DNA of 64,000 bases from Stegostoma tigrinum. Its lineage: Eukaryota. Within the stretch, counting starts at the first letter, position 1; every line of letters begins with the position of its first letter. Location: the NCBI RefSeq assembly GCF_030684315.1, contig NC_081390.1:12400001-12464000 (forward strand), read 5' to 3'. Below, piece by piece: positions 3,395-62,904 of the stretch. A model generated the notes under the pieces. That model saw nothing but the letters and a program-made list of their open reading frames with translations. It was not told where the DNA came from and did not search any database. A program made the position numbers and the translations under genes.

Positions 3395-3680
3395 GAAAAG
3401 AACAAAAAGTGCTGGAGAAGCTCAGAATCTGTGGAGAGAGAAATGGAAAAAAAACACTTCAAGTCCCATTGTTCTTCACAAATAAACATAAACAGAAATT
3501 TGGTGTTTCTGACAAAGGGTTTGAGTCACGTGACCCGTCTATAGAAACACCAAATTTCTATTGCTGTTTGATTTTGAAAAAGTCACACCAGGCTCGAAAC
3601 ATTAAGTCTATTTCTCTCTTCACAGATGCTGCCAGGCCAGCTGAGTTTCTCCAGCACTTTCTGCCTTTATTCCCAGTTTA
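3395..3680. mobile_element. Penelope-like short repeat, inverted pair
   Basis: The arms AAAGTGCTGGAGAAGCTCAG...TCTGTGGAGAGAGAAA and TTTCTCTCTTCACAGATGCTGCC...CTGAGTTTCTCCAGCACTTT are reverse complements. A separate hairpin sits in the centre. Confidence 0.7.
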
Positions 3681-3729
3681 AAACTGTTGCTTTACTTCTT
3701 CACTTAAAACATGCACAATTCTTGTTAAT

Positions 3730-3880
3730 AACAAAATACTGGGAATGTGAAATTGCTGGGGTAACTCAGCAGGTCTGGCAGCATCAGTGGAGAGAGAAAC
3801 AGAATCAAGGTTTGGAACTTGATATGGCACCTTTTCAGTTCAGACTGGTTTGGAGTTTCTCCAGCATTTCTGCTTTCAAT
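3730..3880. mobile_element. Penelope-like short repeat, degenerate inverted pair
   Basis: ACTCAGCAGGTCTGGCAGCATC arm followed by a truncated inverted arm GAGTTTCTCCAGCATTTCTG. Confidence 0.6.
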
Positions 3881-4319
3881 TTACATTCTTATAACGCCAT
3901 CTATGCTCCATTTATCCTTATTTATGCTTTATCCATGTCAATTCGTCGGGTGTGTAAAGGTGTGTTTGTCCTAGCCCAGGCTCATACAGTCTTATAATAA
4001 TAGATTGTAATATTAGGAGAGAATTTAGAGACAAGTTTGATGACATTGAAATGCTTTTTCAGATATTACAGTAATATAATAATATCAAAGATCACTGTGG
4101 GCAGTGCAGTGAATCAAACAATTTAAATGACTCCTTTTAACATGTACAAACCAAGGAAAAGCTCAGATTTATATCCGTATAATTAAAAATATTCCACCTG
4201 ACATGTACATCACACTTCAAAGAGTCACACATGTGGAATGTTTGTCATATTCTCCGATATGCTTGCTCATAAGATTTGTCTTTTATTATGAAATGCTTTT
4301 AAAAGTCGGCAAATATTCA

Positions 4320-4520
4320 GTGAAAACAAAAAGTGCTGGAAATCACAGCGGGTCAAACAGCGTTCATGGAGAGAGAGCAAGCTAACATTTCAGGACTAGA
4401 TGACTCTTCACAGCAGCTGTGATGAAGAGTCATCCAGACATGAAATGTTAGTTTGCTGCCTGACCTGCAATGATTTCCAGTATTTTTCTTTTCAATACAG
4501 ATTCCAGCAGTTGCAGTAAT
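4320..4520. mobile_element. Penelope-like short repeat, inverted pair
   Basis: Central palindrome GATGACTCTTCACAGC-A-GCTGTGATGAAGAGTCATC with a degenerate hammerhead core, flanked by the family arms. Confidence 0.65.
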
Positions 4521-5454
4521 TCACTCCTACCAGCACTCGGTGCCTGTCATCCTCCCAGACAGGATAGGAACCCACATTGAACCACTACCAAACAGCTACA
4601 GAGACCAGTCAGCATAAGTTGATAAACTGTCTCTGGCAAGCTACTTGTGAGAAGCAGCAAAGAAGCTAACAAAATGGCCAAATTTTTTTTTAGAAAATAG
4701 TTTTGCCTGCCATCTTATTAAAATACCAACATACAAAATGCTAAAAATAAAGTTTGTAAAATAAACAATGGAAAACTTAAGTGGTGCAGAAGAAAATTTT
4801 AACTCATAATTTTTCCTATATTGTCTTGGAAATCTGACCAATTTTTTCATAGCCAGATCATTCTCTTGGAGCAAGTTTTTTTTTGTTGTTGAAGCTATTT
4901 TGTTCACTTCAGCCTTCTCTCCTAATCCTTTTTGGTTCTCTCTCCATGTTAAGGCTGAAGGCTTTTATTCCTGATTTCCCTGCTTTGCCAATTTACTCTT
5001 GATAGCAATAACCCAAAGCAGTTCCATAATGGAATATATCCAATGTTCTTTATTAAAGCAAAGTTCTCTATAAAAAGTTCTGCAAAAACTCTCACCCGTA
5101 CAATGCTTACAATCACAAGTGAACCCATCTACATGAAATTGTCTGAAGATCAGACCAGAACTGGTGATCAACCCATTCCATCTGAACTCCTCACTGTTGA
5201 TTAATTGACCTGTTCTCTGAGTGGGTTAAATTTTTACTCAGTGGTAAGCTGCTTCATACTCTTTCCATTCAAGGAAGTTGTGGAAGCAAAGCCTTTGACG
5301 CTATCCATTCTCCAGAAAATGACCAGTTTAACCACTGGCAAACATTACAATTGTGTCATATTTTCCATGTCAGTTTGATCAATGAATTCATCAAGAATTG
5401 CTTAGTTGTCCTTGTGAACTAAAAAGGCTCATCTCTTGCCTTTAATGCTCAATT

Positions 5455-6859: not shown

Positions 6860-7010
6860 ACATAGAACATAGAACATAGAACAATACAGCGCAGAACAGG
6901 CCCTTCGGCCTTCAATGTTGCGCCAACCTGTGAACTAATCTAAGCCCATCGCCCTACACTATCCCATCATCATCCACATGCTTATCCAAGGACTGTTTAA
7001 ATGCCCCTAA
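6860..7010 (-). mobile_element. Young CR1-type LINE 3' end
   Basis: (AACATAG)n tail; near-identical to 21045-21190. Confidence 0.8.
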
Positions 7011-8620: not shown

Positions 8621-8766
8621 AGCAATCGGCATATTTTTAAGTCATTTGCTCTTCATGATCGGTATGTCAGTTAAACAGAAGTACAATATTGAGCTTTACA
8701 CTGCACAACACATCCAGGGCAGAATGGTTTATGTTGGACAATATGAAATGGTGTGCATTATGACAC

Positions 8767-8894
8767 AGAGATAACGGGAACTGCAGATGCTGGAGAATCC
8801 AAGATAACAAAGTATGGAGCTGGATGAACACAACAGGCCAAGCAGCATCTCAGGAGCACAAAAGCTGACGTTTCGGGCCTAGACCATCAGAAAA
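8767..8894 (-). mobile_element. Penelope-like short repeat, single arm with 13-bp TSD
   Basis: TGCATTATGACAC is duplicated at 8754-8766 and 8895-8907. The minus strand has CUGAUG..GUCUAGGCCCGAAACGUCAG, a hammerhead core with a small deletion. Confidence 0.75.
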
Positions 8895-9967
8895 TGCATT
8901 ATGACACCAGCTTGCTTCACCCTAAGGAAGTTAATATTCTAAAAGCCCCCTAAAATTGTGGAATATATTGAAAACACAAATATTCATTCTAAAGTCTGAA
9001 TACTTTCAAAGGAAGTCAAAGTCACAAGCAAAGGGAGCTTGTGACGCCGATACGTATGCACACATTTTCAATATAGATTGTTGATATTGAGTAAAGCCAA
9101 TGTGAATTGGGTCATCACCTGTTTTTTGCAGCCATTAACCCAGATCTATCTGTCTACCAATGTGAACATTAAACATCACATAGCACTATCAGAACATGAG
9201 TTTTTCCAATATCCTCAAGCAAATTATCCGATCACTTATCTCATCACTGGATATAGGATCTGGCTGACATTTTACCATATCACAGCTCATGCCATCATTT
9301 CAGCAGTTCTGTCAAATGCTTTGACATGTCTTGACATCAAAAAATGTGCTTTACAAGTACTGGCTTTCTCTTTCTTTGTGTTTAGAATTCTGTAACTAGA
9401 TTGCCTTTATTTGTTGTAAATGCATGAATGTCTTTGAAGTATTGCTTTCATATGTTTTTGGCCCCCAAAGAGTCAGTTGATTTATGCGATAGAAGGTTAA
9501 TTGCGCTTTTGTGAGCCAGCCTACTTTGCAAAATCAGTGACGTGCCACTCAAATATTCATTTCACTGCAGGAAGTCAACATTAACCAATCAAAATGCCTC
9601 AAAATGCCCAGATGACTGACATAGAGTCACACATAAAACAACATTTTCTCAAGTGGCACTTGACCCTCTTACATAATTGGTTGATTATATGGTGGGCATT
9701 CATTGTTGGCAACAATTAATCAAAATTACAGCAACATTCAAATTCTGCAGATGCTGGAAATCTGAAATAGAAAGAGAGAATGTTGGAAATCTTCGACAGT
9801 AGATAGCATAACTGGAGAAAGAAACAGGGTTAACTGGGCCAATTTGAGCTCCATGTAAGTGAATGGATTTTGCATGATTTAGAATATTGACTAAATCTTC
9901 AGGTCAATGCACCTTTGGAATTGGAAAACAATGCAGCTGTTTTAAATTTGAGGAATGCCTTCATTAA

Positions 9968-10288
9968 ATTCCCTACTATGTGGAAGCAGACCATTCAGCC
10001 CATCGAGTCCACGCCAACCCTTCAAACAACAGCCCTGCCCCAACGCCATACTTCCCATGGCTAATCCACTAGCCTGCACATCCCTGGATACTACGGATGA
10101 TGTAGCATGGCCAATCCACCTAACCTGCTCATCTTTGGATCTTGGGAGGAAACTGGAGCACCTGATGGAAACTCACGCAGACATGGGGAGAATGTACAAA
10201 CTCCACAAAGTCACCCAAGGCTGGAATTGAATACGGGTCCCTGGTGCTGTGAGGCAGCAGTGTCAAACACTGAGTCACCGTGCCACCC
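9968..10288 (-). mobile_element. HE1-type tRNA-derived V-SINE
   Basis: Reverse strand shows a tRNA-like head (A and B boxes), the central V-domain (GGAGGAAACTGGAGCACC...CACGCAGACATGGGGAGAATGTACAAACTCCACA on +) and a LINE-like 3' tail. Confidence 0.85.
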
Positions 10289-11929
10289 TAACAAAGCTCA
10301 TTAACAAAGTTAGTGTCCAGAGAACAAAGCTTGAGAATTCTGAGGCATAATGCTGATGCAAGGGTGGAATTATGTTAATTCTTTTCAAGGAAATGTGCAT
10401 GTCACTGACTTATGCTGGCTTTGCATTAACACATCACATTTGACGGAATTGTTTATGGCACTTCCAAGCATTGTCTGCTGAAACTCATGTCACTCGTTTG
10501 TACAGATTGGCCACTTGCAAAAAATCTAGCTCAAACACACTTTATGGATGCATTTGAATTACTTATTGGTGTACATCTGTGCTCATACACTTAGATGTAA
10601 ATTTACCTGATATCTGTGTTTGGAAAACTTCTGGACTTTGATCATGATTGTCTGTTCTACTTCTATCCTTTGAGTTCAGTTTTTGTTTTGGTGAGTCCTG
10701 CACTCAATCGTAGATTCCAAGCTTGAAGATTGTAACTCATTCACTTTTACTCCTGGTGGTGATGTGCCTGTTTTATGCCAGGTTTTTACAGCCTTGCATG
10801 GGTAAACTTTGGAAAATTTCTGAGTAAGTTCTCATCAGCAAGGTTAGTGGAGAAACCTGTTTCCATTTTGCTATAATTTCTGTTTACGTGCAATCCAGGA
10901 AATTACAGACTCTGAACAGAATCTCATTTAGCACAATTGTCAATCAGGCAGAATAATCAATGCTTGAACATAACGAAAATGTTGCAGAGAGCTCCTGCAG
11001 GAAACCACAAGTCAAATGATGCTGCATATAAGCAAAATATGCTGGGCTCCTGGTTAATCATGATGCATTGCACACTCTGATGTGGTGTTCACTAGTGTGG
11101 TGGGGCTTATTGATAACTGTTGTGGGTAAAAGACCTATTTCTTTGTTTGCAGACTGTTCTAGTTAATTACAAGCTGGGCTGCACATTTCCAGACTTTATT
11201 TTGCCAAGTAAGCAATTAAGAGCTTCATGCGTGTAAGTCTAGTGAGTGTGGGTACTTTGATTTTCCTGTGAGTCCCATTGGTCACTCCACTGCATCATAT
11301 GTTCTGCATAAGATTAAAACCAAAAATACACCATTTGGCAGGAAGACTCTGAGGAGTAACAGTTTAACTGCATAAGCCTAAGAAGAGAGCTAGAGAGAGA
11401 TCCATGGGGAAGACAATGAACGAATGTACATCAGTGTCTGTGTGTAGTGTTATTTTGTTTATAAAGTTATGCTATACTATACCTAGACTACTTCAAGATC
11501 ACTTGAGAGGCATCAGACCACCCCTACTCCAACCTAAACAAAACAAAACATAGTGGCAGCAACCTGTCATAAAGTGGAACCAAAGTTATACTGTCCAGAG
11601 GGAAAGCTTGCACTGGAAATCAGGCTTCACTGTTCCATGAGCAGTCACAAATGCACGCTTGGCTAGGATGGCTAACTTTTCTGATTTTGATCACTATTTA
11701 AGATAAAATCAACTCACATTAGGTTTTATCAATAAACAATGAAACCAACCTGCTTAATGATACTAAATTTGTCCTTTAACAAGTAGTAAAATGATTACTA
11801 ATTATGAATTGGCAAATTTCAACTCTTCTGTTATTAAATGCAAACATGCACGCATTCATTCACAAATGTAGCAGGCACAACAGAGAGACAACAGGATGAA
11901 AAAAACAGGAATAAAAACAAACTTCCTCA

Positions 11930-12260
11930 GACCCAAAAGGTTAACTCTGTTTTCTCCTCCACAGGTGCTGCCAGACCTGCTGAGCTTTTCCAGCAAGTTT
12001 GTTTTTGTTCCTGATTTACAGCATCCGCAGTTGTTTTGGTTTTTAGATAACAGGGTGAATTGCAGATGCCAGATAGTTAAAACAAAACCGGAAAAGTGCT
12101 AGAGAAACACAGCAGAACTGGCAGCATTCATGAGGTGAGAAACAGAAATAATATTTCATGTCCAACATGACTTCTTTGGCAAATGTTAAATCTGCTTGTC
12201 TCGCCACAGATGCTGCCAGATCTGCTGAGATTCTCCAGACCATCCTGTTTTTCAACAAGA
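11930..12260. mobile_element. Cluster of Penelope-like short repeats (one arm plus one inverted pair)
   Basis: GCTGCCAGACCTGCTGAG family motif at ~11967 and ~12211; inverted arm at ~12090-12150. Confidence 0.65.
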
Positions 12261-12661
12261 CAGTTTTTGCAGAAATATTATGGCTGGAAAATGTAGGCTA
12301 AATGGAATAAATTCTGTGGATCAAGAACCCAAACCATAAAGATATAATGAGGTGACTTTCTCACAGTAATTTTGGATTCTGGCAACAATATTATGGTGTT
12401 GTTTGTTTCAGTTATGGTCAGTACAGGAGCCGGTCGGTTGGACGTAGTTTTTTGTTTGAGTTAAAAGTTCTTCTTTTCAAGGTCTTTTTTCCTCTGAGAC
12501 AGACAGGGAGGGAGAAAGCATGAGAGAGAGAAAGAGAGAGTGAGTGAGAGATATGTCATGGTTTGCAAGCTTTTCAAGGTTTGAGTCCAACTGTTCTCTT
12601 CTCAGTTCAATGATGAAACTGCAACTTAAATCCAATCCAAATGTTGTTGGGTTAAAACCGA

Positions 12662-12862
12662 CTCAGAGATAGCAGGAACTGCTGATGCTGGAGAATCTGA
12701 GATCACATGGTGTAGAGCCAGATGAATACAGCAGGCCAAGGAGCATCAGAGGAGCAGGGCAGCTGATGTTTCAGGTCTGGACCCTTCTTCAGAAATGCAT
12801 TTCTGAAGAAGGGTCAAGACCTGAAACATCAGCTGTTCATCCAGCTCTACACCTTGTTATCT
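12662..12862. mobile_element. Penelope-like short repeat, inverted pair with perfect central palindrome
   Basis: GACCCTTCTTCAGAAATGCATTTCTGAAGAAGGGTC is self-complementary. CAAATGTTGTTG is duplicated at 12638-12649 and 12863-12874. Confidence 0.75.
12801..12833 (+). ncRNA. Putative minimal hammerhead motif (mirror copy on - strand at 12761-12794)
   Basis: UU CUGAAGA A GGGUC-AA-GACCU GAAAC AUC AG. The core boxes are intact, but stems I and III are weak. Confidence 0.45.
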
Positions 12863-15800
12863 CAAATGTTGTTGTGAACATCTTTTTTTCAACCAAAGGC
12901 TCCTGGTGGCAGTTAGTCTCAAAAGTATCAAATCTAGTTTCTACAGAAGTTAAATGCCTTTTTGTAAGTAATAAGTAATCACCATACATTTCCATTTTTC
13001 CTTCAAGTTATGAGATAAAACAATTTCAACTTCAAGATCAGGATACCAGCACGGTAGGCCTGTCCAGGCAGACCATATTCTTCCTTTTTCCCTTCTGTAT
13101 CCTTCATGTCTTTTTTGGCTTACCTTTTCAAGTTCTGGACAGAGTGTAGCAGCGTTGATTGCATCATGGGGAGTCTGGCAGCAGCTGTGGGTCTCGAGCA
13201 GTGTCAGCAGGAGGTCCAATGCAGGGAAGCAACAGTGGGACTGAGCCCAACATGGTAAGGCGAACCCAAAGTGGCAGTCCCCTGCTCTGTGCGGTGTCGA
13301 GAGGAGGAAGCCTGAGTTTCTCTGGAAAGCAGGCCAAAGTAGAGGAGACTGAGTTCTTGCAGGGAGTGCGCTTAAGAAAGACTGTTGAACTTTTACCTTT
13401 ATTCCTTATCTTTCCACTTAATACTGGGAAAGACTGCAATGTTAACTTTCAACTTGCTTTATTTTTCTACTTATACGAAGAACAATGATAATGCTTTACT
13501 TTTAATTCTGTTTCTCTGTGTTATTCTTGTATCTAAGTTTTGTATCTAGGTACCTTTATACCTAAGATAGTGCCGTGTGTGGCGATATTGTACATTTTTC
13601 ACTGTACTCCTGTACTTCAGTATGTGCGATATTAAAGCTTAAATAAGATCAATAAATCGAATGGTTTACTCTCTGCAACACAGCAGTCCACATTCCCATT
13701 TTCTGGTTTGTTTGCAAAAATAAAGACAAAATCTTTGACTGTAAATCCAAAAGAAAACAAAAAACCTTTCCAACTCACCAGTTGTCATCACTTGGGAAGG
13801 AGACTTGCAGCCTCTACAGATTAGCCAGCAATTGCGCATTCAGAGTCTTTAGGAACAACTTGATACACTACTGCACAGTTTGATGAATGTGGCTTGGATT
13901 TTTTTACACTGCAAGAAGGATTTAATGCCTGCAAAGGCAGTCCAGTTATTGAGGCTGTTCAACGCCCAAGAGCAAAACTGAGCGTTATATGGGGTGAGGG
14001 TGAGGCAAGAACAGTTAGTGCAGTTTGTAAGCCCAAGACATGAAGCAGGCCAAAGCAAAAGTCCAAAAAATGTACAAAAGCACACCAGCTGCCATTTTAA
14101 ATACTTCAGATGCAAACGGAACAAAGTACGTAACTGAGATGATTGCCAGCAGGGTAACTCAATACCACAATTATGGCAGACGTAGTCATTTTAAGAAATG
14201 GTGACATTTTAAACAGAATTTAAATGACAATTAAAGCCACAGAAGATAGGATCCAACAAGGGATTAACAATGTACACAGTGAATTTTGGTCAGCGAATAT
14301 TGATATAAAGGGACACTGTAGTGAGTCTAAACTAGACACTGTTGCAGCAGAGCTATTACATCTGAGAAGTTAAAATGCTTAAAACAGATCGAGTTAAGAT
14401 CTTTTTCGAACAGGCAACAAGGACCAGGTGGAACAAAGATCAGATGATTGCAAGATTAATACAAAAAGGCAAAGAAATAAGTAAACCACTTTCCATGCTT
14501 ATAGCAAGGTGAATAGAACAGAAAAGCAAAATAAGATATAAAAAAGGAAAGAGATAAAAGAATGCAAAACTATTGAGAAAGTCACAGTTTACAAAGACAC
14601 ATAAAGTACCAGCATGGAGAAACTAAGCTTCTCATTTTGAGCATGACAATTAAATAATAATTAAATTAAGTAAATGAACTTTCCGAATTTTAGACATGAG
14701 TGAAATAGATGGCTAGTTTCATCTAACAATCTGATTGTTTTGTCGCCGTTACTTAGGAAATATGTTGTAACCCACCCCAATCAATCATTGCTATATTTTT
14801 CTAACAGTACTTTGTCATGCTAACTCTGGGTTATGTTCACATGTAATATGTGATAGCCAAAAGCTATCATCTTTGAGTGGAGGTTTTTAAATCATTCCTG
14901 GGCTCCCACAATGGTTGCAGGACATCTTGTGTTATCTGCCATTAGTTGGACTTGTTTGTGCACATATAGTTTATCAATAGCAGTGAGGAAAATGGGGATC
15001 TTTGATCCGTGTAATGACCAACCTATCTCTGGTCTCTCTTTGTCTCCTTCAAACTTCAATACCACATAACTCAGATCATCTACTCCCATGTCCAGACCAT
15101 TGTCCACTTGTGTTATGAGATTACCCAGTGCAGAAAACCTCACCAATGCTATTGACTGACTTCCAGATCTGATTGTTCTATTGTTCTGATGTCTGCTCTC
15201 AGAAGGCTGTTGTTTGTACAGTATTCAATGTGAAAACTCAAGCAGTCATTGCCCTTCTCCTCAACAATCCATGTCGATCCCTAGCCTTATTTAAATATTC
15301 CACTCAAAAACCTTTCTATCAGCATTCATCCTTTGTTCTTCTAAATTTGGTCTATTATGTATTGCCCCCATTTGCTCACAGTGACTCAACCTTTATCCGC
15401 AACTAAAATGCAATTCCCTTCCAATTCACTCTCCTATTGAATTTTCTGTAAGGGACATCTGGTTGTTCATCATGGAACCGGCTGTAAAGAAAAGTAAGTT
15501 GTTTGTAGTGACAAAGTCCACCTGTCTTTTGGACAGTAGATGTCCGAACAAACAGCAGAAGAAAGAGAACTTCTAAAAAAAACTTTTAAAATGGTGACAT
15601 ACACCCACGTTGATGCATTTAGAAAATTACTTGGGTTAAAAACAATAAGAAACAAAAATCTGTGTGGTTGCCAGAGCACAATTAGTTAATGTAGCTCCAT
15701 GAACACAGCTCAAATGAAATTATCTATTACCCAACAGCATAGTGTAGCGAGACTGATGTCACGCAGTCTACAGACCATATTGTCTAATTCTGCTGGGGAA

Positions 15801-18138: not shown

Positions 18139-18351
18139 TACAAAAACCAAAAGAAATGCAGATGCTGTAAATCAGGAACAAAAACAAAGTTGCTGGAAAA
18201 GCTCAGCAGGTCTGGCAGCATCTGTGTAAAACAGAATTAATATTTCGGGTCCAGTGACCCTTCCTCAGAACTGTTTTCTTCCTCAGAACTCTGTTTTCTC
18301 CTCCATAGATGCTGCCAGACCTGCTGAGCTTTTCCAGGAACTTTGTTTTTG
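18139..18351. mobile_element. Penelope-like short repeat, inverted pair inserted into a CR1 LINE
   Basis: Inverted arms; GCCCTAAGA is duplicated at 18130-18138 and 18352-18360. Confidence 0.75.
18235..18272 (-). ncRNA. Putative minimal type I hammerhead ribozyme motif in a Penelope-like short repeat
   Basis: The minus strand reads AGUU CUGAGGA A GGGUC-ACUG-GACCC GAAAU AUU AAUU. It has the core boxes, a 5-bp stem II, a 4-bp stem I (AGUU/AAUU with one G-U), and a loopless palindromic stem III. Activity is not shown. Confidence 0.6.
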
Positions 18352-20396: not shown

Positions 20397-21044
20397 TGAG
20401 CAATGAAGGCAAACTTGTCAAATGCCTTCTTTACCATCCTGACTACCTGTGATGTGACTTTCAAGGAACTGTGAACCTGAACCCCTAGGTCTTTCCATTC
20501 CATAACACTCCCCAGGCCCTAACATTAACAATGAATGCCCTCAAGCAAAGTCAATGCTATCCCTCATCAGTCCTTGCCTTTCCAGATGCTTGTAAATCCT
20601 TTCTCTCAGAATCCCATCATAGACAACAAATTCACTGGTTTATCATTCCCTGGCTTTTCCTTCCAGCCTTTCTGAAATAAAGACACAACATTAGTCATCT
20701 TTCAGTCTTCAGGCACCTTACCCATGGCTGTCGATAAAAAAAATCTCTGCTATGATCCCATAATTTCTTCCCTAGCTTCCCTCAACATCCTCGGAAACAC
20801 CTGATCAGGTCCAGGGGATTTATCTATCTTTAGACTTTTTAAGACCTCCAGCATCTCCTCTTCTGAAATGTGCACTGTTTTCAAGACATCAATATTTGTT
20901 TCCCTGAATCCCTTCACTTCTATGTCTTTCTCCACAGTAAATACGAAGGTGAAATTTCATTTAGTATCTCTCAAATCTCCTCTGATTCCACACATTGATG
21001 ACCTTGTTAATCTTACTCTCTCCCTAGTGGCTTTTTCGCTTTTA

Positions 21045-23576: not shown

Positions 23577-23579
23577 GGG

Positions 23580-33546: not shown

Positions 33547-33565
33547 GTAAGTGCCGTATACGGCT

Positions 33566-41410: not shown

Positions 41411-41505
41411 CAATCTACTGGACTATCACAAAACCCATTGCTCTTGAGGGAAGGAAATCTGCTGTGCTTGCCCAGTTTAGCCTATAGGTGACTCCAAGCT
41501 GATAG

Positions 41506-42839: not shown

Positions 42840-43065
42840 CATAAATAAAAACAAAGTGCTAGAGAAACCCACAAAGTCTGTCAGCATCTACAGACAGCGA
42901 AACGTACTTAAACATTTCGAGACCCATGACACTTCTGAAGAGCCATATTTGATTCAAAATGTTCATTCTATTCTTCTCTCCACAGATGCGGCCAAACCTG
43001 CTGAGTCTCACCAGCACCGTCTGTTTTTATTTCAGATATTCAGGATCCGCAGCAATTTGCTTTAA
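42840..43065. mobile_element. Penelope-like short repeat, degenerate inverted pair
   Basis: Family arms in both orientations around CTTCTGAAGAG. Confidence 0.55.
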
Positions 43066-48255: not shown

Positions 48256-50620
48256 CTGGAAAATCAAAGATAGCATTTCAGTTACAAACAGTGATTTTTC
48301 CAGAAATCCATTATGATGATGTAAGATGGCACGAATTTTGGAGACAAATTTCATACTGCCCTGTGGATTGTGGCATATAAATCCTAGTTTGGGCATTGGT
48401 GGGGGGGGGGGGGGGGGTCATGACTTCCCACACAACCGTAGGAAATCTGCTCAGTATGCCCATATAAATTCTCAAAAGCTTCTCCAGGAAAGGAAATCAA
48501 TCTAACAGACGTCAGTGACCTGATTGGACATTTCATTTGCATTCTTAAAGGTAGAAGATTATAGCCAACTTTGCCTCCTGGCATATCCTGGGCCTCCCTC
48601 CCACTATTGGTGCAGAATGGCAGCACTAATATATTAAACACTGTATAATCCATAGACATTCATGGTCATGAGACACTCTTTCCATTCCCACCCTGGCGCA
48701 ACTGGGGACAGGGTCCTTGACTTAATCGATTAACTTCTGTGCAGAATCTGTCCTTTCGCTGTATGAATCCCTTATTTTAACTGACAAAGTAGTTTTATTT
48801 CCTTACTTATTACATGCCTAATTACCATGAAAATACTGATTACATAAAGAAAGCTTTGGCAGAAATGATCAGAAGGTCAAGTGCTTATTATAGACTTGAG
48901 CACATAATCTAGGTTGACACTTTAGTGCATAACTGAAGGACTATCAGAAATGATGTATATTAATCGAGATACCATTTTTATTTTTAAAAAATTTGATCAT
49001 GGGATGTGGACATCGTAGGCTAAACCAGCAGTTACTGCCCATCCTTAATAGCCCAGAGGACAGTTAAGCATCAAACACATTCCTGTGGGTCTGGAGTCAA
49101 ACCTGGACCAGGCCTGGGAAGGATGGCAGATTTTGTCCCCTAAAAAGGGCATTAGTGAAGCATATCAATTTTTACAACAATCGACAATAGTCTCATAAGT
49201 TGCCATGAGGCTGGCTTTTCACTCCAGAATTTTATTGAATTCAAATCTGATCAGGCACCATGGCTGGATTCGAATCCATGTCCCCATAACATTAGCCTAG
49301 GGTTCTGGATGAGTAGTCTACAGATATTACCACTATGTCATTGCTTTCCCCTTAAGGGCAACAAAATCACATTTGAAAATCACCAACAAGCCAATGCTAA
49401 GATATTACAAAATAAAGGAGAACCCATCATACTGTAGGTGACAACCATCATGGGAAACATTACAGTATGAAAAAGAACAACAATCTCATTATTAGAAAAA
49501 AAATCCAAGTGTCACATGTGGAAAGGTTTTCGGTACCACAGATTAGACAGACCTTAAATCATGCTAATAAAGAAAAGTGCTCCCTCTAGTCAGTAAGGAC
49601 TAGGGGTTGCTGACATTGCTAACTGACTAAAGTTGCTTTCACAATGTTTTTTCAAGTTAAAAACAATGTTTGTTTGCATTGCACAAAGTATGGATCAAAG
49701 GCTGATATCCCATGTTTGAAAAAATCAAGAGATGGACTTACTTACATTCGATGTTCAGCAATTTTTTTGTACATTGGTCATAATTTGTGTTGCAGCCAGG
49801 GTAGCCAAGGTCCTTATAAATTATATTGATTTAGGTAAACCTACCACCACTACTGTCTCTACTCTGCATAGTAGAGATATGAAAAAGCATTGAGTACTAG
49901 CATGCCTTATTCCTGACCCTCCTTAAGAATTGGAGATCTGCTAAGTTGATGTGTAGTACAGTTTGTTACTCTAGCTACATGCAGACGATCTAGAGATTTC
50001 ACAAATATAAATGTCTCCAAAATCCTCTTCAGCAGGTCAAGGTAGTAGTCAGGGCCAAGGGTTCTTTGATAGAATATGAGCCAATAAGGATGTGAATAAT
50101 GCCACAGGAACATTATTGTTCACTTTATTCCCTCATTTAATCTCACATGAAGGATACTATTAATAACCTAGTTTCCTAATGGAATTGCTACAATCTTTGA
50201 CTCTGGTGGCAATTACAAATGCAATCTCTGATGTTAGGGAAGAATAGTAAGACTCCTAAATAGCTCTCACCTCTGAATGCTTGATTCTGATACAATTCTT
50301 TTCCCATAATCTTGCCTTGGCTAATTTGAAAAGATGTAACAGTAATAAAAAGTGTTTGCTCTCATTTTCTCCCACTCAACAGTCACAATGTACCCTGAGT
50401 TGGCAGTATCCAAATGGTTCCTCTTAAGACAGTTCATCATCACTGTATTGCATCAGCAGAAGTTACTGAGATTCCTGCTTAGATCATCCTGCCTTTGTAC
50501 AGAGACAAGTGCACACGGTTCTGCATGGAGTTCAGACAACTCTATACATTACAGCAAATATTGACAGATTTAACACACACCAGTGAAGAACTCAGGATTT
50601 AGAGTTTCATAATCACTTAC

Positions 50621-50822
50621 CATGTTCTGTTTCGCTGCCAAAATTTGGAAAAATGAGTCGTGCCATTCCAGGATGTGAATATCTAGCAGATGACTGGAAG
50701 GAAAAGAGCGCTTGCAGGAGGAACAGACATTGCGGTGAAATGTATTATAATGATGTTCGTAGTTTTCTAAGGCATCAAACAGTTGACTACAACCTGCTAT
50801 TTGGCAACAGAATTCAGAAACC
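50621..50822 (-). CDS. znf511: ZNF511 exon 3 (two C2H2 fingers)
   Basis: Encodes VSEFCCQIAGCSQLFDALENYEHHYNTFHRNVCSSCKRSFPSSHLLDIHILEWHDSFFQILAAKQNM, with CTAG| acceptor and |GTAAGT donor; 202 nt. Confidence 0.96.
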
Positions 50823-50961
50823 CTAGATATTTTTTTAAAAAATGGAAACATAAATATACATAAGTTAGTTCTTCAGAAAAGTAGTAGCGGACAATTAAAA
50901 TGGCTTTGGTGGAATCCAGTTAGTAAAGGGGCAATCCTCAAATGCAAACAGCTTTACTTAC

Positions 50962-51032: not shown

Positions 51033-52302
51033 CTAAAACAATAGGTTAAATTATTTTCAATAAATCATTGGTTTGCGAAGTAGTTAAAAGTTAATCAGTT
51101 ACATACAAACTTCAATTTTTTATTGGTATAAAAGAACCTTCTTGTAGTGGAAGGTAAGCAACAATACATCTAATAGCTAATATTATCAACACTGGGCAAA
51201 CACAGTAATGCACTGAAAAGCCAAGTCCGTGGGACTGTTGGATGAGATAGTAAACCCAAACTAGAGGTAATATAATCAGAAGACACAAAGCTATCAACGG
51301 TTCTACACTATCAGCATCCATTGAAACTTATCACAATGTCTGACTAGCCAAGGACATACTTCCCACGTTTTGACTGCCAGCAAATCATCCAACAAGGCAT
51401 CCCATAGTAATGCTTCTTTTACTATACGCTCATATTGTCAGAATATAATTTAAATTTATTTCCTTTATTACCAAAACCACCATCTCTAACGATCAAAGTG
51501 AATGCAGTCATCAGCTAAAGGTGTCCATGAAATTTAGTTTCTTTACAGCAAGGTCAATTTCAACTCCATTTATTATGTAGGTAATTTAGTTCCAAGGGTA
51601 AGGAAATATACTTGTTGCAGTGTGACAATCCTTTTAGTCGCTACCTAAACGTCAGCTAGGCATCAATGCAAATTAGCTGCATTACGGAGCAGGAAAACTG
51701 ACGTTTCGGGTTGGGACTTTCCTTCAGAAAACCCTTAACAGTTTGGCCGATTTGATTAATGCTGACTGGAAGGTGCTGGGGGCTCAATATAAACTGCACA
51801 TTGTGGTTAAAACAAATACATCGATAAATCTCATGTCCATCACTTTTTAAATACTTGGCTGTTCGCCTGCACGAAGTAAGTAGTTAAGTAAGTAGTGAAC
51901 CTCTAGTGAACCTCTCCACAATTCTAAAGATGCAACTGTTTGGGCCGTTCACCATACCTGATGTTCAAGAGAAAGCTCTCAGAAAGGAAATCTGCAAACG
52001 CTTTGATTATTATCACATTGTTGTTTGCGGGATTTTCCGTTAATTAGCTACTACAATGGCTGCAAAACACTTTGGGATGCTCTGAAATCGTAAAAGGCGC
52101 TACAGAAATACAAGTTTTTACTTATAAAGGAAACACGGCCATCAGCTTACACACAGCAAGTTCTCTCTCTGTCTCACACACACATATATACAGCAACGAG
52201 GGAATGACCTGACCTGTTTAAATGCAACTGAATGGACACCAACATTGCACTCCCCGCCCCAAGGACTCAAGGTTTCAGTTTAATTAACGTGCCGCCACTA
52301 AC

Positions 52303-52843: not shown

Positions 52844-53640
52844 GTGAGGTTCGGCCCCGGGCAGAGAGCGGGAGGAGCGGCCTGGGCCTCTGTCTCCGTG
52901 TGCGTTGGGAAGGGGTTATATTTAAAAATGAGCGCGATCTCCCCCAGCAGGTCTGGCTGTTTGTTTTGGTAAACAGGCCGGGCTGCTGCAAGGGCCCTGA
53001 TCCGGGGAGACCAGCTTTCCGCTGCCGGTCTAAAATCAAACCGCCCTGACTGAAAAAGCTAAGGGGCATTTCCAGGCTCTTAACTCCCGATGTGCGCCTT
53101 AGGTCGACCTCCTCCTCTCGCAGCCTCTTGTATTGCCCCTAACCCGTGCAGGCTCAGTCTTGGGGTAGAATTGGAATAAACAGTTTACCTCAATCCCTCC
53201 ACAAACCGAGGGTATTAATATCTGAAGCGGGGGGAAACCACAGGGCCTCATGTTTTTATATTCCGAATACAGGTCATTGCATTACTGTATCGCATCAGGT
53301 GCGCACCCACCTCATGCGGGTTTCCCCATTTTAAAAAATTGTAACTTTGTTTTTAAATCGCTTTCCGACCCCTCAGACCTTTAGTAATAAAGACGAAGTT
53401 CTTGTACGCAAAAGCAAAATACACTGGTACCTGGACATGTAAAATAAAAATAAAATCTTTGAGCGTTCAGACCTACTGAGTTTCTCAAACATTTGCTGTC
53501 ATTTCGATTTTCAGCATTCGTAAAATTTTGCTTTTATTTATTACAAGCTTTCATGATCTCTGCACTCTGACAATTCGACCATCTTGCACTTGTGTTTTGG
53601 TTGCTTTACTATTCTTGCCTTAACCTCTATGATTTTTAAA

Positions 53641-53942
53641 GAATTCCTACAAATGTGGAAACAGGCCTTTCAGCCCAACAAGTCCACACTTCCCCTCCAA
53701 AGAGCATCCCACCCTGACGCATTCCCCTACCCCTCCATTTCCCCATATCTAACCCACCTGGACACTATGGTTAATTTAGCATGGCCAATCCACCTACCCT
53801 GCGCATCTTTGGACTATGGGAGGAAACCCATGCAGACACAGGGAGAATGTGCAAACTCCAAACAGACAGTGACCTAAGGGTGAAATTGAACCCTGGCCCC
53901 TGGCGCTGTGAAGTAGCAGTGCTAACCACTGAACCGCCCTCC
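53641..53942 (-). mobile_element. HE1-type tRNA-derived V-SINE
   Basis: Clear similarity to the 9968-10288 copy (GCATGGCCAATCCACCTA...TTGAACCCTGGCCCCTGGCGCTGTGAAGTAGCAGTGCTAACCACTGA). Confidence 0.85.
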
Positions 53943-56857: not shown

Positions 56858-58814
56858 GTAATGAGGCTTGAGTATATCTTTAGTGTTTCTGAGCCAGTTT
56901 GATACGATTTGCAATAAAATTCATACCTCTTATTGCATGAACCTGCCTGCTTCCTGTTATATTGATTGATGTTATTATTGGAATCATTTGGTAAACATAG
57001 CTGTGACGTGACTTGCAGTTTTGGAATCCAGACATAAAATGCGTACACTGTTGCACTCCTCACTCTGCACTGGAGGACAGTGTGAGTGGATTGAGATTTT
57101 CTTCAAGTACCCTCTGCTTTCAAAACACGTTGACAATGAACCAGACTATTAAGTGTACTCTGTGCTGCACACTCTGTTAATTATTACAAACAATGTTCCA
57201 AAAGATCCAAAATTAATTCAGGAAGAACTGGATTATCTCTGTTAGCCTTTTTATGGTGTCAAGAATGCTGAAATTCCTTTTTTCTTGGGATGTGGGCATT
57301 GTTGCCCCACTCTCTTCCTTCCTAAGTAACGTTCCAGCTCATTTGATGAAATGTACCTGCTGGTACACCGATCTGTTTGAGAGTTGACAGCTCAGTAAAT
57401 TATGGTAGTAGGTGATTGAATGTTTCCTTCGAAATGACTGTTGATCTGAAGGTGGCGTTGAAGTGAAGAAACATAAACTTAGGAACAAATCTCCTCATGA
57501 AATAAATGGTGTAGTGGTGATGTCACAAATCCATAGGCTCAGCCTCATGCTCTGGGGTCATTGGTGCAAATGCCACTATGAGGACTGGTGAAATTTAAAT
57601 TCAATTCATCGTTCAAGAATATAAAACTAGCCTCTATAATGGTGGCTATAAAATTTATGATCCGTCGTCATAAAACTCACTTTACCTGCTAATGTGCTTT
57701 GAGGAAAGAAAATTTTCTGTCCTTGCCTAATTTGGCCTACATGTTACTTCAGACTGATAGCAGTATGGTTGATTCTTAACTCATCTCTGAAATGACCTAG
57801 CTCAGTTTGTGAGAATTTGGGATGTGCAACAAATGCCAGTATCATCAGTGGTGCCCATGTCCCAAGAAAAATTAAATTTTAACCACCTTGTTACCATCAG
57901 ATGGTTAACAGAGAAAATCCAGTTCTTGTTTAATTAATTTAGTCGTACATGGATTTGCCAAAAATGTCTGCAGATTTGCGCCTCATTTTGTGGTATGGAG
58001 ATGGCTCCCTTTGAAACACCCCATTTCATAGATGGTGCTTGTATAGTTTTTGTGGCATTGATTCAACCCAAATGTTACTTGTTTGTCTTAAAGAGAGATA
58101 TAGTGACTTGCCTTGGTTTGCCTTGACTTCTCATCAGTTCTCAGTGATGGATATTTTTACGTCACTCTGGTAAATTGATTTCAATGTTTCCACTCTTTTC
58201 AGTAAAACAGACTACAGCTGTTCAAAAGTAGATTAGGGTATCTGTAAATCAAAATTACATTGAATTTTGATGGACAAAATCCAATATTTAATTTTCAACC
58301 TTATATCATGTTTGTCTCAACTTCAATTTCTGATCATAAGGTAATACTTCTTTTATTCTATGCAACCTCATCCAGTACCATTACAGAATACTAGATTCTG
58401 TGCTCTTCATTGTCTACACTTCAAAATTTGTATCTTGTCTGAGCCCCAGTGACGACTCCTTCAGACATTGTGCTAAATAGTGATGCAGCCAAACAAGATT
58501 AAATTTAATCTAACCCAATTCTCAGCCAGATTATTGTGACATTGTTAGTTTGCTGAAGGTAGAATTTTAGTTTGGAACCACTATTTAAATTTGAGTCTGT
58601 GTCTATAGATATTATCTTGCCTGGGAAAAATTGCAACCAGAAATTTGTAAGACCAAGAGCTTGGATAAAGGCAAAATGTTTTGGTTCTGCTTTTATTTCT
58701 AGTTTTCAGTAAAAGCTGGAAAGAATCTGCAGGCCATTCAGAAATTCCCTGTAGAGCTATCTGTGCCTTTGCAACCTTTATAATTTTAATTCTATAAAAC
58801 ATTGTAATTTTTCC

Positions 58815-59013
58815 AACAACAACAAAAGTAGAAATTGCTGGAAAAGCTCAGCAGGTCTGGCAGCAAGTGTGGAGAGAAATCAGAGTTAATGTTTTGAGCC
58901 CAGTGACTCCTTCTCAGAAGTGGAGGAATTCTGACTTTTCTCCACAGATGATGCCAGACCTGTTGAGTTTTTGCAGCAATTTCTGTTTCTGATTTCCAGC
59001 ATCCACAGTTCTT
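58815..59013. mobile_element. Penelope-like short repeat, inverted pair with 13-bp TSD (tubgcp2 intron)
   Basis: TTGTAATTTTTCC at 58802-58814 and 59014-59026; inverted arms. Confidence 0.75.
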
Positions 59014-60458
59014 TTGTAATTTTTCCGCGTATGTTATACTTTATTCCAATATGATTTTTTGTATGTGGGTAAATTTTTTTTACCTAGTTTATTGGACCAT
59101 CATTTCTGGTCTCCCAACAATATTAAGTGATATGGGAATTTTATCTTTTTGTTTATCATTTTTGACAATTTGCTTTCTTCTTTCAGCCTTCTGTGAATGC
59201 TGTCTTGTATTCTCTGACTGAGTGAAGTATCATGGTCATCTGCTCCTAGGCCTGTTACTGATGCTGCCTTGAGGGCAGTTGGTAAAATGTGCGATGTAAC
59301 TTGGCCACCATTTTTTGGCTTTGCTAGACAGCATAATTGATTATGAACTTGCCACGGAAATGGTGCAGTACTGCAAATTGCACCTTGTCAATTCACAGCA
59401 CAGCATAAAATTAAAGCAAAGTAGTACAGATGTTGGAGATCTAAAATAGCAACAGTGCTAGAGAAATTCAGCAGTTGTAAAGCACAGAAGTGACTCTTGG
59501 TCTGGCAGCATCTGTTGGGACAGGAACAGGGCTAACATTTTGAGCCCAATATGCCTCTTCTTTGAAATTAAAGCGCTTTCTGTTTACATTCCATGATAAA
59601 CGTTTAATCACGAGTGTCAGCAGTGCTTAAATATTCTTATGTTTTGCCGTTATCAAGTGTGCACTAGGCAAACTCAGCACAAGTTAAGAATAAGAATTTG
59701 GAAATGCAAACTTGCATTATGTACACGCAGTTCAGTTCACAGTGAACATAAAAGTACATAAATGCAAACTTAAATTGAAGTGATTGTCCATATAGTTTAA
59801 TACAGTTCCAATGAAGGTTGTTGTCAATCTACCATCATAGGTCATTTTAATGTAGCACCATAGGTCATTTGGTACACTAATGGCCTTTAGGAAAGGAAAC
59901 TGCCATCCTTGTCTGGTCTGGCCTACATGTGACTCCAGACCCACAGCAATATGGTTGACTAATAAGTACGCTCTGGACAATTAGGGATGAACAATAAATG
60001 CGGGCCGAGGCAGTGTCGCCCTCATCACATGAACGAATAAGAAAAGTTTGGGAATAACAGTATTACTTTTAAAGTTCTGATTAAAGTTATTGAACAGGTC
60101 AGTTTTGGTTTTATCCTGTTGCTGTTTTTGACAAATGTTTGCACAGATCCAATAAAGAACGCTTTTCCTAACATTTTGTTATTGAATTGGTCTACTCCCA
60201 ATTCTGATTTGAATGTTTGTGTATTCATTACAGTTGCAAAAGAGTAAGGTTGGGGAAAAAAGCTTTTGGTAAAAATGATTAAAAGTTTCAGTAATTCAGT
60301 TTGTTAAACTTTTTTTAAAAAAAAAATTAAAAATCCTGATATCTTGCCTTGATTTTGATTAACAGTTATAACCATGAAATTGTGAGGTCTACAGATTTTT
60401 CCATAGGTATTTAACTACTGTGAGCTTAGAAACAGATTTGTCTTCTCTTTTATTACAG

Positions 60459-60635
60459 ACTCTGCAGTATTTGCAACAGAATGCTAAGGACAGAGCAGAA
60501 CATTCATCCAATGTTTTAGCTAGCAGTGGTGCAACGTTCAACATCCCAACTACGACTGCCAAACTCTCGATACAGGAACTTGAAGAACTTCGTAAACAGC
60601 TCGGTAGTGTCACTACAACTACAAATTCACAGCAG
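60459..60635 (+). CDS. tubgcp2: TUBGCP2 third coding exon (gene continues beyond window)
   Basis: TTACAG| then TLQYLQQNAKDRAEHSS...LSIQELEELRKQLGSVTTTTNSQQ, then |GTAAAG; 177 nt, phase 0. Confidence 0.95.
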
Positions 60636-61229
60636 GTAAAGAAATTGAACATCAGCTTTTTTATTTAAGCAATCTTTGATATTCTTGTGTATACTGGAGA
60701 TACAAAGTCTTCTGAGTAACAAAAATTGAACATTGGGATGTGATAAATCTGAATTTACCTTATTCATAAGTTTTTTCAGTCCCAATTTGTGGTGTTCAGT
60801 CTTATTTATTAAAAAGATGTAAACTCATTTTCACAGTGGATTAAAGTGCACTGGTAATGTAGAATATTACCGTGAGGTAATATTCCAGATTAATTTTTAA
60901 AAATTCAGGGCATGTGGATAGGTGTACAGCAGGTATCGTATCTAGGCTTGGGCGAGTAACAGGAAGTTCCAGAATTTTTGATTCAGTGATAATGAAGGAA
61001 CAGCAGTATCATGTCAGGATCATGAGTGGCTTGAAGGAAAACTTGCAGGTGATGTTGCTTCCATGTATCTGCTACCCTTGTTCTTCCAGAAGTTAGTAGT
61101 TGTGGGTTTGCAAGGTGCGGTCGATGGAATCTTGGTGAATTTCTACAGTGCATCTTGTAAATGGTAACACTGCTGCGTCAGTGATAGAAGGAACGGATTT
61201 GGTACGAGTCAAGCAGGCTCCTTTGTTCC

Positions 61230-62190
61230 CTTCCTCTTCCCTTACCGTCTGGGCCGCTCCTGGGCTGATCCGGCAAACAATGCCTCTGGCCTAGGACAGA
61301 ACTAGGCTTGGCTTACAGATCTGCTCCTGGCAATGCTCTCTGTGACTGAACCCTTCACTGCAGGCTACCTTTAGGCTGCCTGGATATCACTCAGCTTCTC
61401 CTCCTGCTCTTTAACTTGTTTCCACCTCAGCGATTGCCCTGTTTCAGTGTCTGTTTATTTGCCTTGGGTTCTGTAACCTGACATTGCAGGTAATCAATCT
61501 GATTCCTGTACCATTCCTCCAGTCTTGCCCCTCTCGCTGCAGGTCTGGATGCAGCATTTCCCCAGTCCTGCTCCCTTCCTCTGCATCTCTTAACGCTGCC
61601 TTCAGTTCCCTGACTTTCCTGACCAGCACCTGAACCTGTTGCTGGAGACAGAAGCTCCAGATTGCCTTCCTTATGGAGTGCTCATGCTCCTGGCTCTCAG
61701 TTAATTGGGCTGCTGCTTCTGCTGGATGTTCTGCTCTCAAAAGATCCAGGATCCATTTATTACATATATTCACTTTTTTGAACACATAGGAGGAGATTGT
61801 CTCGTCCATCAGAGACTTTGCTTCTGTAACACCTCCTACAGCATTGAATTCCTTCTGTCATTGTTCTGCTGTGGGTCCATTCTGTAGGGATTCTGGTTTG
61901 TGATCAGTAATCTGCTGATTTTTAGGTGGTTCAAATCACCCCCAGATCCTTGGCCCTGACACTGGACTTAATTGAGGAATGTGAAGAAGGCTATAGGCAG
62001 GTGTTTCAGGGCAAAGAATCTCTGCATCTATAAAACCACAAGAAATAAAAAGGCGAATAATAAACAGGGAAATAAACAAAGGTGAATAAAAATACAAGAG
62101 TTAAAAAGGCAAATTCAAAACATTAAAACTGACACTATCAGTTATTAACACGGGCTAATTACTATCAGAAACTAAACAGTAGTTTCAGCA
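61230..62190 (-). mobile_element. Probable LINE 5' region / ORF1 remnant
   Basis: ORF 61444-61809 has a Cys plus leucine-zipper-like segment (CLQQQVQVLVRKVRELKAAL), as in CR1 ORF1 N-termini. Confidence 0.35.
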
Positions 62191-62904
62191 TAACAAAGTG
62201 TGAAGCTGGATGAACACAGCTGGCCAAGCAGCATCTCAGGAGCACAAAAGCACACATTTTAATCAGACTTCCTGACGTTAGGGCTCCCTGCACTGTTACC
62301 AATCCACCTTCCCCTCCCTACTAGCTAGGTTGGATGCTTTGGGTCTCAAAGGAAATAGGCTCACTGCTCGGAATAAACACAGTTTTGAAATACAGTTGAC
62401 TGTTCCCACTTGCTGTAGCCGGTGCTACACTGAAGATTTCGGGCAGTGTTCAATCTGGTTTGAGAACCTGGGTTTTCTTTCTTTGTGGTGGTTTTATGAA
62501 CTGGTTTTCACCTCAGGATGTGTTGGAGGCCTTGTCAATCATTTTGGTAGTTTTCGGAGGTCATCGGCGTCAGATCTGCTGGTCGTGATCAGTTGCCGTT
62601 GGTTTCCCTGGTACGGAACAGCCCTGTGTTGGTAAGTTTCAGGGGGATAGCTGTGCAGAAAGTTCTCGGCAAGAGTAGTTGCCTGGGATCCCTCTTCTGC
62701 TGGTATATGTAGGGTTGGCTCTCTCTCCCCGAGATCACGGCCAGCAGGTATACAGACTGTGTGCGCCGTTATCACCTTGCAAATCTGTGTTATCCGTTGT
62801 CTTTCTGTGGTCCCTTTTGTGGTGAATTGGCTTCCTGATAGTTTAGAGTAGATGTAAATATGTTTTGGTTAAATGGAATGTCCAATATTTCTGTGAATGA
62901 ATAT

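Follow-up and report, generated by a model that had tools for sequence, protein, structure and literature searches.

Insertions of EN+ Penelope-like elements (PLEs) show head-to-head inverted arms with a tail of 30–40 bp on one arm, variable duplications of 8–15 bp, palindromic junctions and solo pseudo-LTRs (pLTRs) (Arkhipova et al., 2013, PMC3846280; Craig et al., 2021, PMC8557442). The shark repeat analyzed here resembles these insertions in all of these features, but differs in that the pLTR core makes up the entire insertion, no ORF is seen, in most copies a hammerhead marks a fixed 5' edge, and the density of copies is high. The minimal hammerheads of metazoan PLEs, which are mostly single, have a CUGANGA box followed by an extra base, a G10.1-C11.1 pair, a loopless palindromic stem III and a short helix I (Cervera and de la Pena, 2014, PMC4209133), and the same holds for the shark motifs, although helix I of shark subfamily B comprises only 2 bp. 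In Schistosoma, hammerhead pairs on opposite strands lie 100–700 bp apart (PMC4209133). The searched supplement of that study holds no entry for shark, Callorhinchus or Leucoraja.

The Poseidon element of Anolis carolinensis (PAc) has two alternative ends ~100–130 nt downstream of the hammerhead, as does the shark unit (Frangieh et al., 2024, PMC11167929). With a purified PLE protein, nicking and extension occur on both strands, reverse transcription starts at two internal sites bracketing the tail, and uncleaved RNA is the main substrate (PMC11167929). For the shark unit, an uncleaved template and priming on both strands are likewise proposed. PAc differs in being autonomous, with an ORF that begins in stem II; the putative shark partner is likely of the Neptune type. 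Animal non-LTR retrozymes are likewise short and non-coding, with a type I hammerhead, PLE-pLTR ancestry and long duplications (PMC7229834; bioRxiv 10.64898/2026.07.22.740005). However, they are arranged head to tail in arrays and, in PMC7229834, have canonical hammerheads and circular RNAs, whereas the shark copies, with their minimal hammerheads, occur singly or paired head to head. Elements of this kind and the way in which they insert have been published, and the biology itself is therefore no surprise.

Hammerhead-tipped repeats in the window

Profile searches with two models (A and B) built from copies inside the window, i.e. the whole 64-kb stretch of shark DNA analyzed, identified 20 loci with 29 arms of a hammerhead-tipped repeat. 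This corresponds to one locus per 3.2 kb, and 2,997 nt (4.7% of the window) lie under the 28 longer arms. In the reversed window, used as a control, model A gave one match at E 0.65 and model B none. All 18 positions listed in a preliminary description of this DNA were recovered, and two loci (45.2 and 53.5 kb) were added. The unit of ~130 nt has a minimal type I hammerhead motif at its 5' edge, followed by a body and an optional 3' tail of 33–40 nt; the insertions total 130–300 nt and consist of this pLTR-core-like unit alone.

3353–3682: old inverted pair; tailed arm 3367–3480 (minus), tail-less arm 3570–3668 (plus), both extending ~35 nt upstream past the hammerhead; degenerate duplication (12/14) at 3353 and 3669, found post hoc
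3735–3879: decayed pair from the profile search; arm 3750–3833 (minus), short remnant 3842–3879 (plus, E 0.23)
4316–4525: inverted pair; left arm (minus) tail-less, right arm (plus) tailed; near-palindromic center; duplication not found
8754–8907: minus strand, solo subfamily B copy 8767–8894, tailed; hammerhead with a 4 nt deletion; exact 13 bp duplication (8754, 8895)
9737–9852: minus strand, old solo copy from the profile search, tailed
11886–12059: plus strand, subfamily A copy 11927–12045, tailed; short inverted remnant, recognized by eye, before the copy; 15 bp duplication with 2 mismatches (11886, 12045)
12058–12255: old inverted pair adjoining the 11.9 kb copy tail to tail; left arm (minus) tailed, right arm (plus) tail-less
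12638–12874: subfamily B inverted pair from the profile search; tailed arm 12665–12795 (minus), internally deleted tail-less arm 12800–12864 (plus); palindromic center; 15 nt filler 12650–12664; exact 12 bp duplication (12638, 12863)
18130–18360: subfamily A inverted pair; tailed arm 18139–18272 (minus, tail 18139–18178), tail-less arm 18287–18351 (plus) starting where cleavage is predicted; exact 9 bp duplication (18130, 18352)
18235–18272: minus strand, the one minimal type I hammerhead of the window that is complete, in the left arm of the 18.1 kb pair; core from C3 at 18268 to H17 at 18239; stem II of 5 bp, helix I of 4 bp, palindromic stem III without a loop
29592–29760: plus strand, subfamily A copy 29628–29755, tailed; short inverted remnant on the left side (E 0.47)
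31658–31803: minus strand, young solo subfamily A copy, tailed; 7 bp flanking repeat, within chance
39440–39601: plus strand, solo subfamily B copy 39459–39588, tailed; exact 13 bp duplication (39440, 39589)
41494–41730: subfamily B inverted pair; left arm (minus) tail-less, right arm (plus) tailed; exact 12 bp duplication (41494, 41719)
42838–43062: old inverted pair; left arm tail-less, right arm tailed; overlapping hairpin center; duplication not found
45146–45247: plus strand, decayed solo copy, tailed; one of the two added loci
51675–51735: minus strand, hammerhead half of a subfamily B copy, from the profile search
53463–53529: plus strand, decayed copy represented by its tailed 3' half; the other added locus
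58802–59026: subfamily A inverted pair; tail-less arm 58815–58921 (minus), 5 nt filler, tailed arm 58927–59016 (plus) starting where cleavage is predicted; exact 13 bp duplication (58802, 59014)
59408–59574: minus strand, old solo copy, tailed; 25 nt internal insertion; exact 10 bp duplication (59408, 59565)
62184–62261: minus strand, tail-less subfamily B fragment, from the profile search

At least two subfamilies had been claimed, and we find A (11.9, 18.1, 29.6, 31.7, and 58.8 kb) and B (8.8, 12.7, 39.5, 41.5, 51.7, and 62.2 kb) together with older variants. The unit has a sharp 5' edge, which lies at hammerhead helix I. Model position 8 or lower is reached by 20 of the 29 arms, while the pair at 3.4/3.6 kb, which continues ~35 nt upstream of the hammerhead, indicates that this 5' edge is not universal. 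Two of the 29 arms, with starts at 18287 and 58927, begin exactly at the predicted cleavage site. No head-to-tail neighbors occur among 28 arms in the window.

In all eight pairs in which both arms are at least 60 nt long (3.4/3.6, 4.3, 12.1, 12.7, 18.1, 41.5, 42.8, and 58.8 kb), one arm only is tailed, a pattern with a probability of 0.004 if each arm independently had a 50% chance of a tail, and the 33–40 nt tail offsets the outer ends in every case. The pair at 3.7 kb was left out of this count since its second arm is a remnant and the tail aligned on neither arm; a tail is present at nine of the 11 remaining loci. Fillers of 3–15 nt lie at or beside the junctions at 12.7, 18.1, 41.5, and 58.8 kb, the centers are palindromic or overlapping at 4.3, 12.7, and 42.8 kb, and the 18.1 kb junction coincides with helix I complementarity. 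Of 16 arms, only 4 matched their own partner best, by a score that favors long arms.

Exact duplications of 9–13 bp flank seven of the 20 loci (8.8, 12.7, 18.1, 39.5, 41.5, 58.8, and 59.4 kb), compared with 1.6% of 1,143 random spans; the preliminary description counted six. The imperfect duplication at 11.9 kb is equaled by 0.09% of random spans. Three of the exact duplications (8.8, 39.5, and 59.4 kb) surround one-armed copies. The lengths vary (9, 10, 12, 12, 13, 13, 13, and ~15 bp), in agreement with the earlier suggestion of retrotransposition. The ends carry neither poly(A) nor a microsatellite.

The hammerhead motif

The inner-end motif given in the preliminary description stands as a consensus but not as an actual copy, since none of the 19 anchored arms matches it in full. 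An exact CTGANGA...GAAA is present in three of these 19 arms and the complete core in one. With a strict minimal-hammerhead descriptor the window passes at the left arm of the 18.1 kb pair alone (core 18268–18239, minus strand), and no pass was obtained in 200 shuffles. By contrast, the loose CTGANGA...GAAA pattern was discarded as evidence in itself, with 15 matches against a shuffle mean of 7.4, barely over chance. At positions 15.2–16.2, 17 of the 19 arms have CG or what its deamination yields (CA, TG, or TA) and, judging from the sequence, most core losses are CpG decay. The extra base after A9, the G10.1-C11.1 pair, the palindromic 15.2–16.2 and the short helix I fit the published PLE minimal-hammerhead consensus.

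Pairing was counted with an anchored script, as MAFFT misaligns stem II across the subfamilies because their loop lengths differ. Pair 2 of stem II is G-C in eight arms, A-U in two and broken in 8 of the 19, while pair 2 of helix I is U-G, U-A, or C-G in 12 of the 19. Contig loose ends of a second organism (place 12181) also have A on the 5' and U on the 3' side at stem II pair 2. Several old arms are poorly anchored, and the covariation support appears to amount to one or two events. Rfam scans of the window and of 18200–18285 returned no hammerhead family, just sub-threshold hairpin matches, as expected for a motif that has a loopless stem III in place of the canonical helix III. Fold energies were no better than those of shuffled sequences (z –1.3 to +0.5). 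The hammerhead is likely a minimal form dependent on a dimer, with self-cleavage after NUH as a candidate activity.

Copies and Penelope-like proteins beyond the window

The repeat is very abundant in shark DNA. In one run from the same species, ~120,000 contig pieces align to a 1.07 kb stretch, a depth that is not a copy number, and the alignments stop sharply at the hammerhead edge and at the tail. Run X1 gave 2,566, 902, and 727 records of loose ends at 12045, 12663, and 12795, respectively, all without consensus (agreement 0.35–0.41). A joint reading from the short 3' end into the 5' edge (12795 to 12864) was found in 8–11 contigs per run, and some head-to-tail dimers likely exist.

The shark PLE ORFs (P0031–P0052) encode an RT, a DKG motif, a CX4CxxC linker and a GIY-YIG-type end. 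The element peptide was absent from the 22 shark PLE proteins, which in turn gave no convincing tblastn match in the window. Similarly, no RT or GIY-YIG Pfam domain was detected in 177 of the 179 stop-free stretches of at least 70 aa in the window. Two of 30 gene models with the element peptide (P0012 and P0026) contain a PLE-like piece. In P0026, a subfamily A peptide is joined to a piece of PLE ORF with ~70% identity; the alignment of P0012 with the Neptune-type P0033 was not significant, and the GIY-YIG label of P0012 rests on Atlas clusters in which 10–18% of the members carry GIY-YIG or HTH_animal. Since ~10 other such models look by eye like LINE chimeras, PLE fusions can arise by chance. 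An apparent reading of gene-model peptides as opposite-strand translations of PLE ORFs was rejected as false positives without signal. Scans for the motif in collections of viral, metagenome, and prokaryote sequences were empty or yielded 11 high-GC loci put down to chance, which match little past the 21-mer and have no PLE protein match.

Probable origin and proposed mode of insertion

A PLE origin of the hammerhead-tipped units is highly probable. The preliminary description had proposed non-autonomous, Penelope-derived, retrozyme-like elements rather than MITEs. Penelope descent by retrotransposition is upheld by the variable duplications, the one-sided tail and the fit to the PLE hammerheads (PMC4209133), whereas the comparison with retrozymes is not. 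For the full version of our proposal, in which the ~130-nt unit is a PLE RNA end (pLTR) that is copied in trans and can propagate again, we estimate a probability of about 0.55. A Penelope reverse transcriptase-endonuclease provided in trans would likely insert copies of the unit at staggered nicks in the DNA. An existing copy would be transcribed, and a PLE protein, probably of the Neptune type, would bind the RNA from hammerhead to tail and nick both target strands 9–15 bp apart. Reverse transcription would begin within the RNA at either of two sites bracketing the tail, so that poly(A) would not be needed. If both nicked strands served as primers, one per site, the cDNAs would meet 5' edge to 5' edge, and a short filler or microhomology would link them into a MITE-like pair, while use of the tail site alone would give a solo copy. 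With all cis signals inside the unit, short copies would likely become new sources, as SINEs do. Most copies start ~30 nt upstream of the cleavage site, which implies templates uncleaved at that site; the hammerhead would remain mostly uncleaved in the template and mostly be lost to CpG decay after insertion.

A competing reading keeps the PLE origin but takes every copy to be dead on arrival, a 5'-truncated remainder of the end of an autonomous full-length element. Short copies would then never propagate, and the 5' edge would be set where RT stops at the protein-bound hammerhead or where the full element has a splice or start site. PLEs are heavily 5'-truncated, their mostly single minimal hammerheads are likely truncated elements, and the end of a D. 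virilis intron falls on helix I's 5' end (PMC4209133); the 3.4/3.6 kb arms that reach upstream also agree with truncation. However, none of the 29 arms runs on into coding sequence, and the 727 records at the 5' edge share no upstream consensus, while ordinary truncation should give a ladder of longer copies. We consider truncation rather unlikely. An alternative touching only the formation of pairs stands somewhat below even odds: the inverted arm may arise by fold-back self-priming of a single cDNA followed by endonuclease trimming, as already proposed for PLEs (PMC3846280). The palindromic or overlapping centers and the helix I complementarity at 18.1 kb suit this route, but the junction fillers do not, and the constant tail offset agrees instead with two start sites in vitro.

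That the units are non-LTR retrozymes, i.e. tandem, self-cleaving and circularizing units spread by rolling-circle copying, is very improbable. Their type I motif and long duplications, the 12795-to-12864 joint, and the derivation of animal retrozymes from PLE pLTRs, with presence in one chondrichthyan (bioRxiv 10.64898/2026.07.22.740005), point in that direction. Against this, 0 of 28 arms are head to tail, the units begin upstream of the cleavage site, described retrozymes are tandem repeats with canonical hammerheads (PMC7229834), and the motif has no helix III, even though the 2026 preprint admits minimal forms (bioRxiv 10.64898/2026.07.22.740005). Hardly credible at all are MITEs moved by a DNA transposase with an accidental hammerhead resemblance. 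Such elements would account for short inverted arms inside duplications and for a window in which no PLE ORF was found, but not for duplications varying from 9 to ~15 bp, outer ends made asymmetric by the tail in 8/8 pairs, perfect duplications around one-armed copies, or a descriptor hit unmatched in 200 shuffles.

This very abundant, MITE-like shark repeat is likely the end of a retroelement, which matters for repeat annotation. The huge number of tiny insertions, with both junctions within one read, offers a natural data set for PLE biology, in particular for the making of the inverted arm, the tail on one arm, and hammerhead cleavage in vivo. A bolder form of the trans-copying proposal is doubtful. 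In it, the unit would be a self-propagating, SINE-like PLE parasite that numbers ~10^5 to 10^6 in these sharks and is transcribed from a start of its own at helix I, and the arms at 18287 and 58927 would be DNA copies of hammerhead-cleaved RNA. RNA-seq of the anole element showed no such cleavage; if the bolder form is true, these two arms would preserve in the genome a trace of PLE ribozyme cleavage in vivo.

An abundant dispersed repeat

Profile searches of the whole window, seeded from its own copies, recovered 29 arms (single repeat copies) at 20 loci, and a reversed-window control was clean; the dispersed family claimed in the preliminary description is real. The 28 longer arms occupy 4.7% of the window, and the youngest copies are 92-95% identical. 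In sense orientation, the unit comprises helix I (2-4 nt), a hammerhead motif of ~30 nt, a body of ~65 nt, a first 3' end and an optional tail of 40 nt in subfamily A and 33-35 nt in subfamily B. Neither poly(A) nor a microsatellite was found where the ends of the window copies were read.

Beyond the window, the analysis drew on protein databases and on contigs assembled from sequencing runs. Along 11850-12920, run X1 of the same species contributed 119,996 aligning contig pieces, and two runs of a second organism contributed ~90,000 each. Contig depth is no measure of copy number, as the tool itself warns; contig pieces and window density together point to a genomic copy number of 10^5 to 10^6, and the repeat is very abundant. 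Among the 24 rows of loose ends listed (2,893 further rows exist), those without consensus accumulate at 12045 and 12663, where tails end, and at 12795, the edge of the hammerhead, and the tail-less end does not appear. Among the contig joints are neighbours placed tail to tail and, in small number, dimers placed head to tail. The joints 12727-12786 and 12796-12833/12834 are present as high-depth single contigs, each with one fixed joined form; depth at such contigs reaches ~1,590, compared with ~20 for unique DNA (X2), which suggests that certain rearranged or paired forms were amplified as such.

The hammerhead motif

The layout obtained from 19 core-anchored arms is CUGANGA, one extra base, a 5 bp stem II, GAAA, a two-base palindrome, U, H and a helix I of 2-4 bp, in agreement with the minimal-hammerhead consensus of metazoan Penelope-like elements (PLEs) given in the PMC4209133 supplement. 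The motif previously ascribed to the better-preserved copies, CTGANGA-A-GGGTC-loop-GRCCY-GAAAC-GTY, is matched in full by none of these arms. A complete core is found only in the left arm of the 18.1 kb pair, and the hammerhead descriptor gave 0 matches in 200 shuffles. Two CpG sites account for most losses; in contigs aligned to the 12.7 kb copy, C11.1 and the CG palindrome are restored in one-third to two-thirds of the depth (places 12773 and 12767). Covariation in stems I and II, an earlier proposed check, is present but thin: stem II pair 2 is G-C in 8 arms, A-U in 2 and U-A in 1 but mismatched in 8, and U-A, U-G and C-G occur at helix I pair 2. Hammerhead folding energies were no better than those of shuffled sequences.

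Inverted pairs and flanking duplications

Every pair is arranged head to head, with the 5' edges meeting at the centre. Exactly one arm is tailed in all 8 pairs in which both arms are at least 60 nt long, and a tail is present at 9 of the 11 other loci; the 3.7 kb pair, whose second arm is reduced to 38 nt and where no tail aligned on either arm, was excluded from this count. Pair centres are palindromic or overlapping at 12.7, 4.3 and 42.8 kb, and 3-13 nt separate the arms at 18.1, 41.5 and 58.8 kb. At 18.1 and 58.8 kb the second arm begins at position 33 of the profile, immediately 3' of the predicted cleavage site. The 18.1 kb start falls on helix I complementarity, and microhomology could account for it; a 5 nt filler separates the 58.8 kb arms; such starts (2 of 29 arms) are a clue rather than an established result. 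The 12.7 kb pair has a 15 nt filler (12650-12664) between duplication and tail end. The two arms of the 3.4/3.6 kb pair have ~35 nt in common upstream of the hammerhead (3490-3575), with a perfect inverted repeat of 17 bp among them; this stretch may represent part of the longer parent pseudo-LTR. Copies are clustered tail to tail at 3353-4525 and 11886-12874, with gaps of 12 nt (11.9/12.1 kb) and 66 nt (3.6/3.7 kb); together with similar recurrent joints in the run contigs, this hints that new copies insert adjoining the tails of old ones.

A fixed search around both edges of each locus detected exact flanking repeats of at least 9 bp at 7 of 20 loci (13, 12, 9, 13, 12, 13 and 10 bp), compared with 1.6% of 1,143 random spans, and a 15 bp duplication with 2 mismatches at 11.9 kb; the remaining loci showed no flanking repeat above chance in this search. 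A 12/14 repeat flanking the 3.4+3.6 kb locus was spotted post hoc, outside the fixed search. Since the duplications around the one-armed copies at 8.8, 39.5 and 59.4 kb are perfect, each of these is a complete insertion in itself rather than a MITE fragment.

Origin of the repeat and other features of the window

Most likely, the repeat is the hammerhead-to-tail end of PLEs, laid down in the published pattern. The preliminary description is supported in deriving it from Penelope and in setting MITEs aside, but not in its term "retrozyme-like": the MITE and retrozyme readings both fail defining tests among the window copies. Similar ends presumably occur on the full-length Penelope elements of sharks and rays in public assemblies. 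The anatomy of the repeat agrees with what the anole PLE protein does in vitro, where it nicks and extends both strands, initiates at two internal sites bracketing the tail and uses uncleaved RNA as template (PMC11167929). Because of this fit we prefer a model in which a short RNA, which would hold all cis signals, is primed from two ends; fold-back priming, which would generate the inverted arm, and an origin by simply truncating an autonomous element are plausible alternatives.

Neither the Pfam scan nor the protein search revealed a PLE ORF in the window, although the Pfam scan is not highly sensitive, since LINE fragments escaped it too. PLE-like pieces are present in 2 of 30 database proteins bearing the repeat peptide, the chimeric gene models P0026 and P0012. 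P0026 is ~70% identical to shark proteins that combine reverse transcriptase and endonuclease and have DKG, YIDD and a CX4CxxC linker, which fits the Neptune type as described in PMC8557442; P0012 offers a weak GIY-YIG lead. Many of the other proteins resemble LINE or host-gene chimeras, so that the two demonstrate a suitable enzyme in sharks but not its link to this unit. Stegostoma tigrinum gene models contain peptides encoded by the repeat, which marks the window as shark-like DNA. In subfamily B the sense frame stays open over ~43 codons, and predicted exons of host genes often include it (ZNHIT3 and GGA3 isoforms), with examples in the Stegostoma models P0010 and P0023 and among P0001-P0030; this reflects either exonisation or an annotation artefact.

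The shark family is not described by title or abstract start in the literature searched, and may well be catalogued in Dfam, Repbase or subscription papers. The supplementary tables of a retrozyme preprint (bioRxiv 10.64898/2026.07.22.740005), which cover one chondrichthyan, may bear on its novelty; the literature covered also includes PMC3846280, PMC7229834, PMC8969392 and PMC6155905.

The window also contains the following features, the three tracts lying between presumed Msx exons:

36904-37350, +, Msx-type homeobox exon (Pfam Homeodomain; best PDB match Msx-1)
33568-34467, CT-rich low-complexity tract
35185-35641, 19 bp minisatellite
36561-36726, hairpin repeat of 24 bp units
50573-50872, -, which we take to be a ZNF511-like exon (Pfam gives DUF7565 only, below cut-off)

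An upstream Msx exon is likely near 33100-33550. Further dispersed repeats at 6867-7008, 21044-21185, 10083-10290, 53757-53827 and 63153-63611 have the look of 3' ends of CR1-type LINEs and of a SINE similar to HE1.
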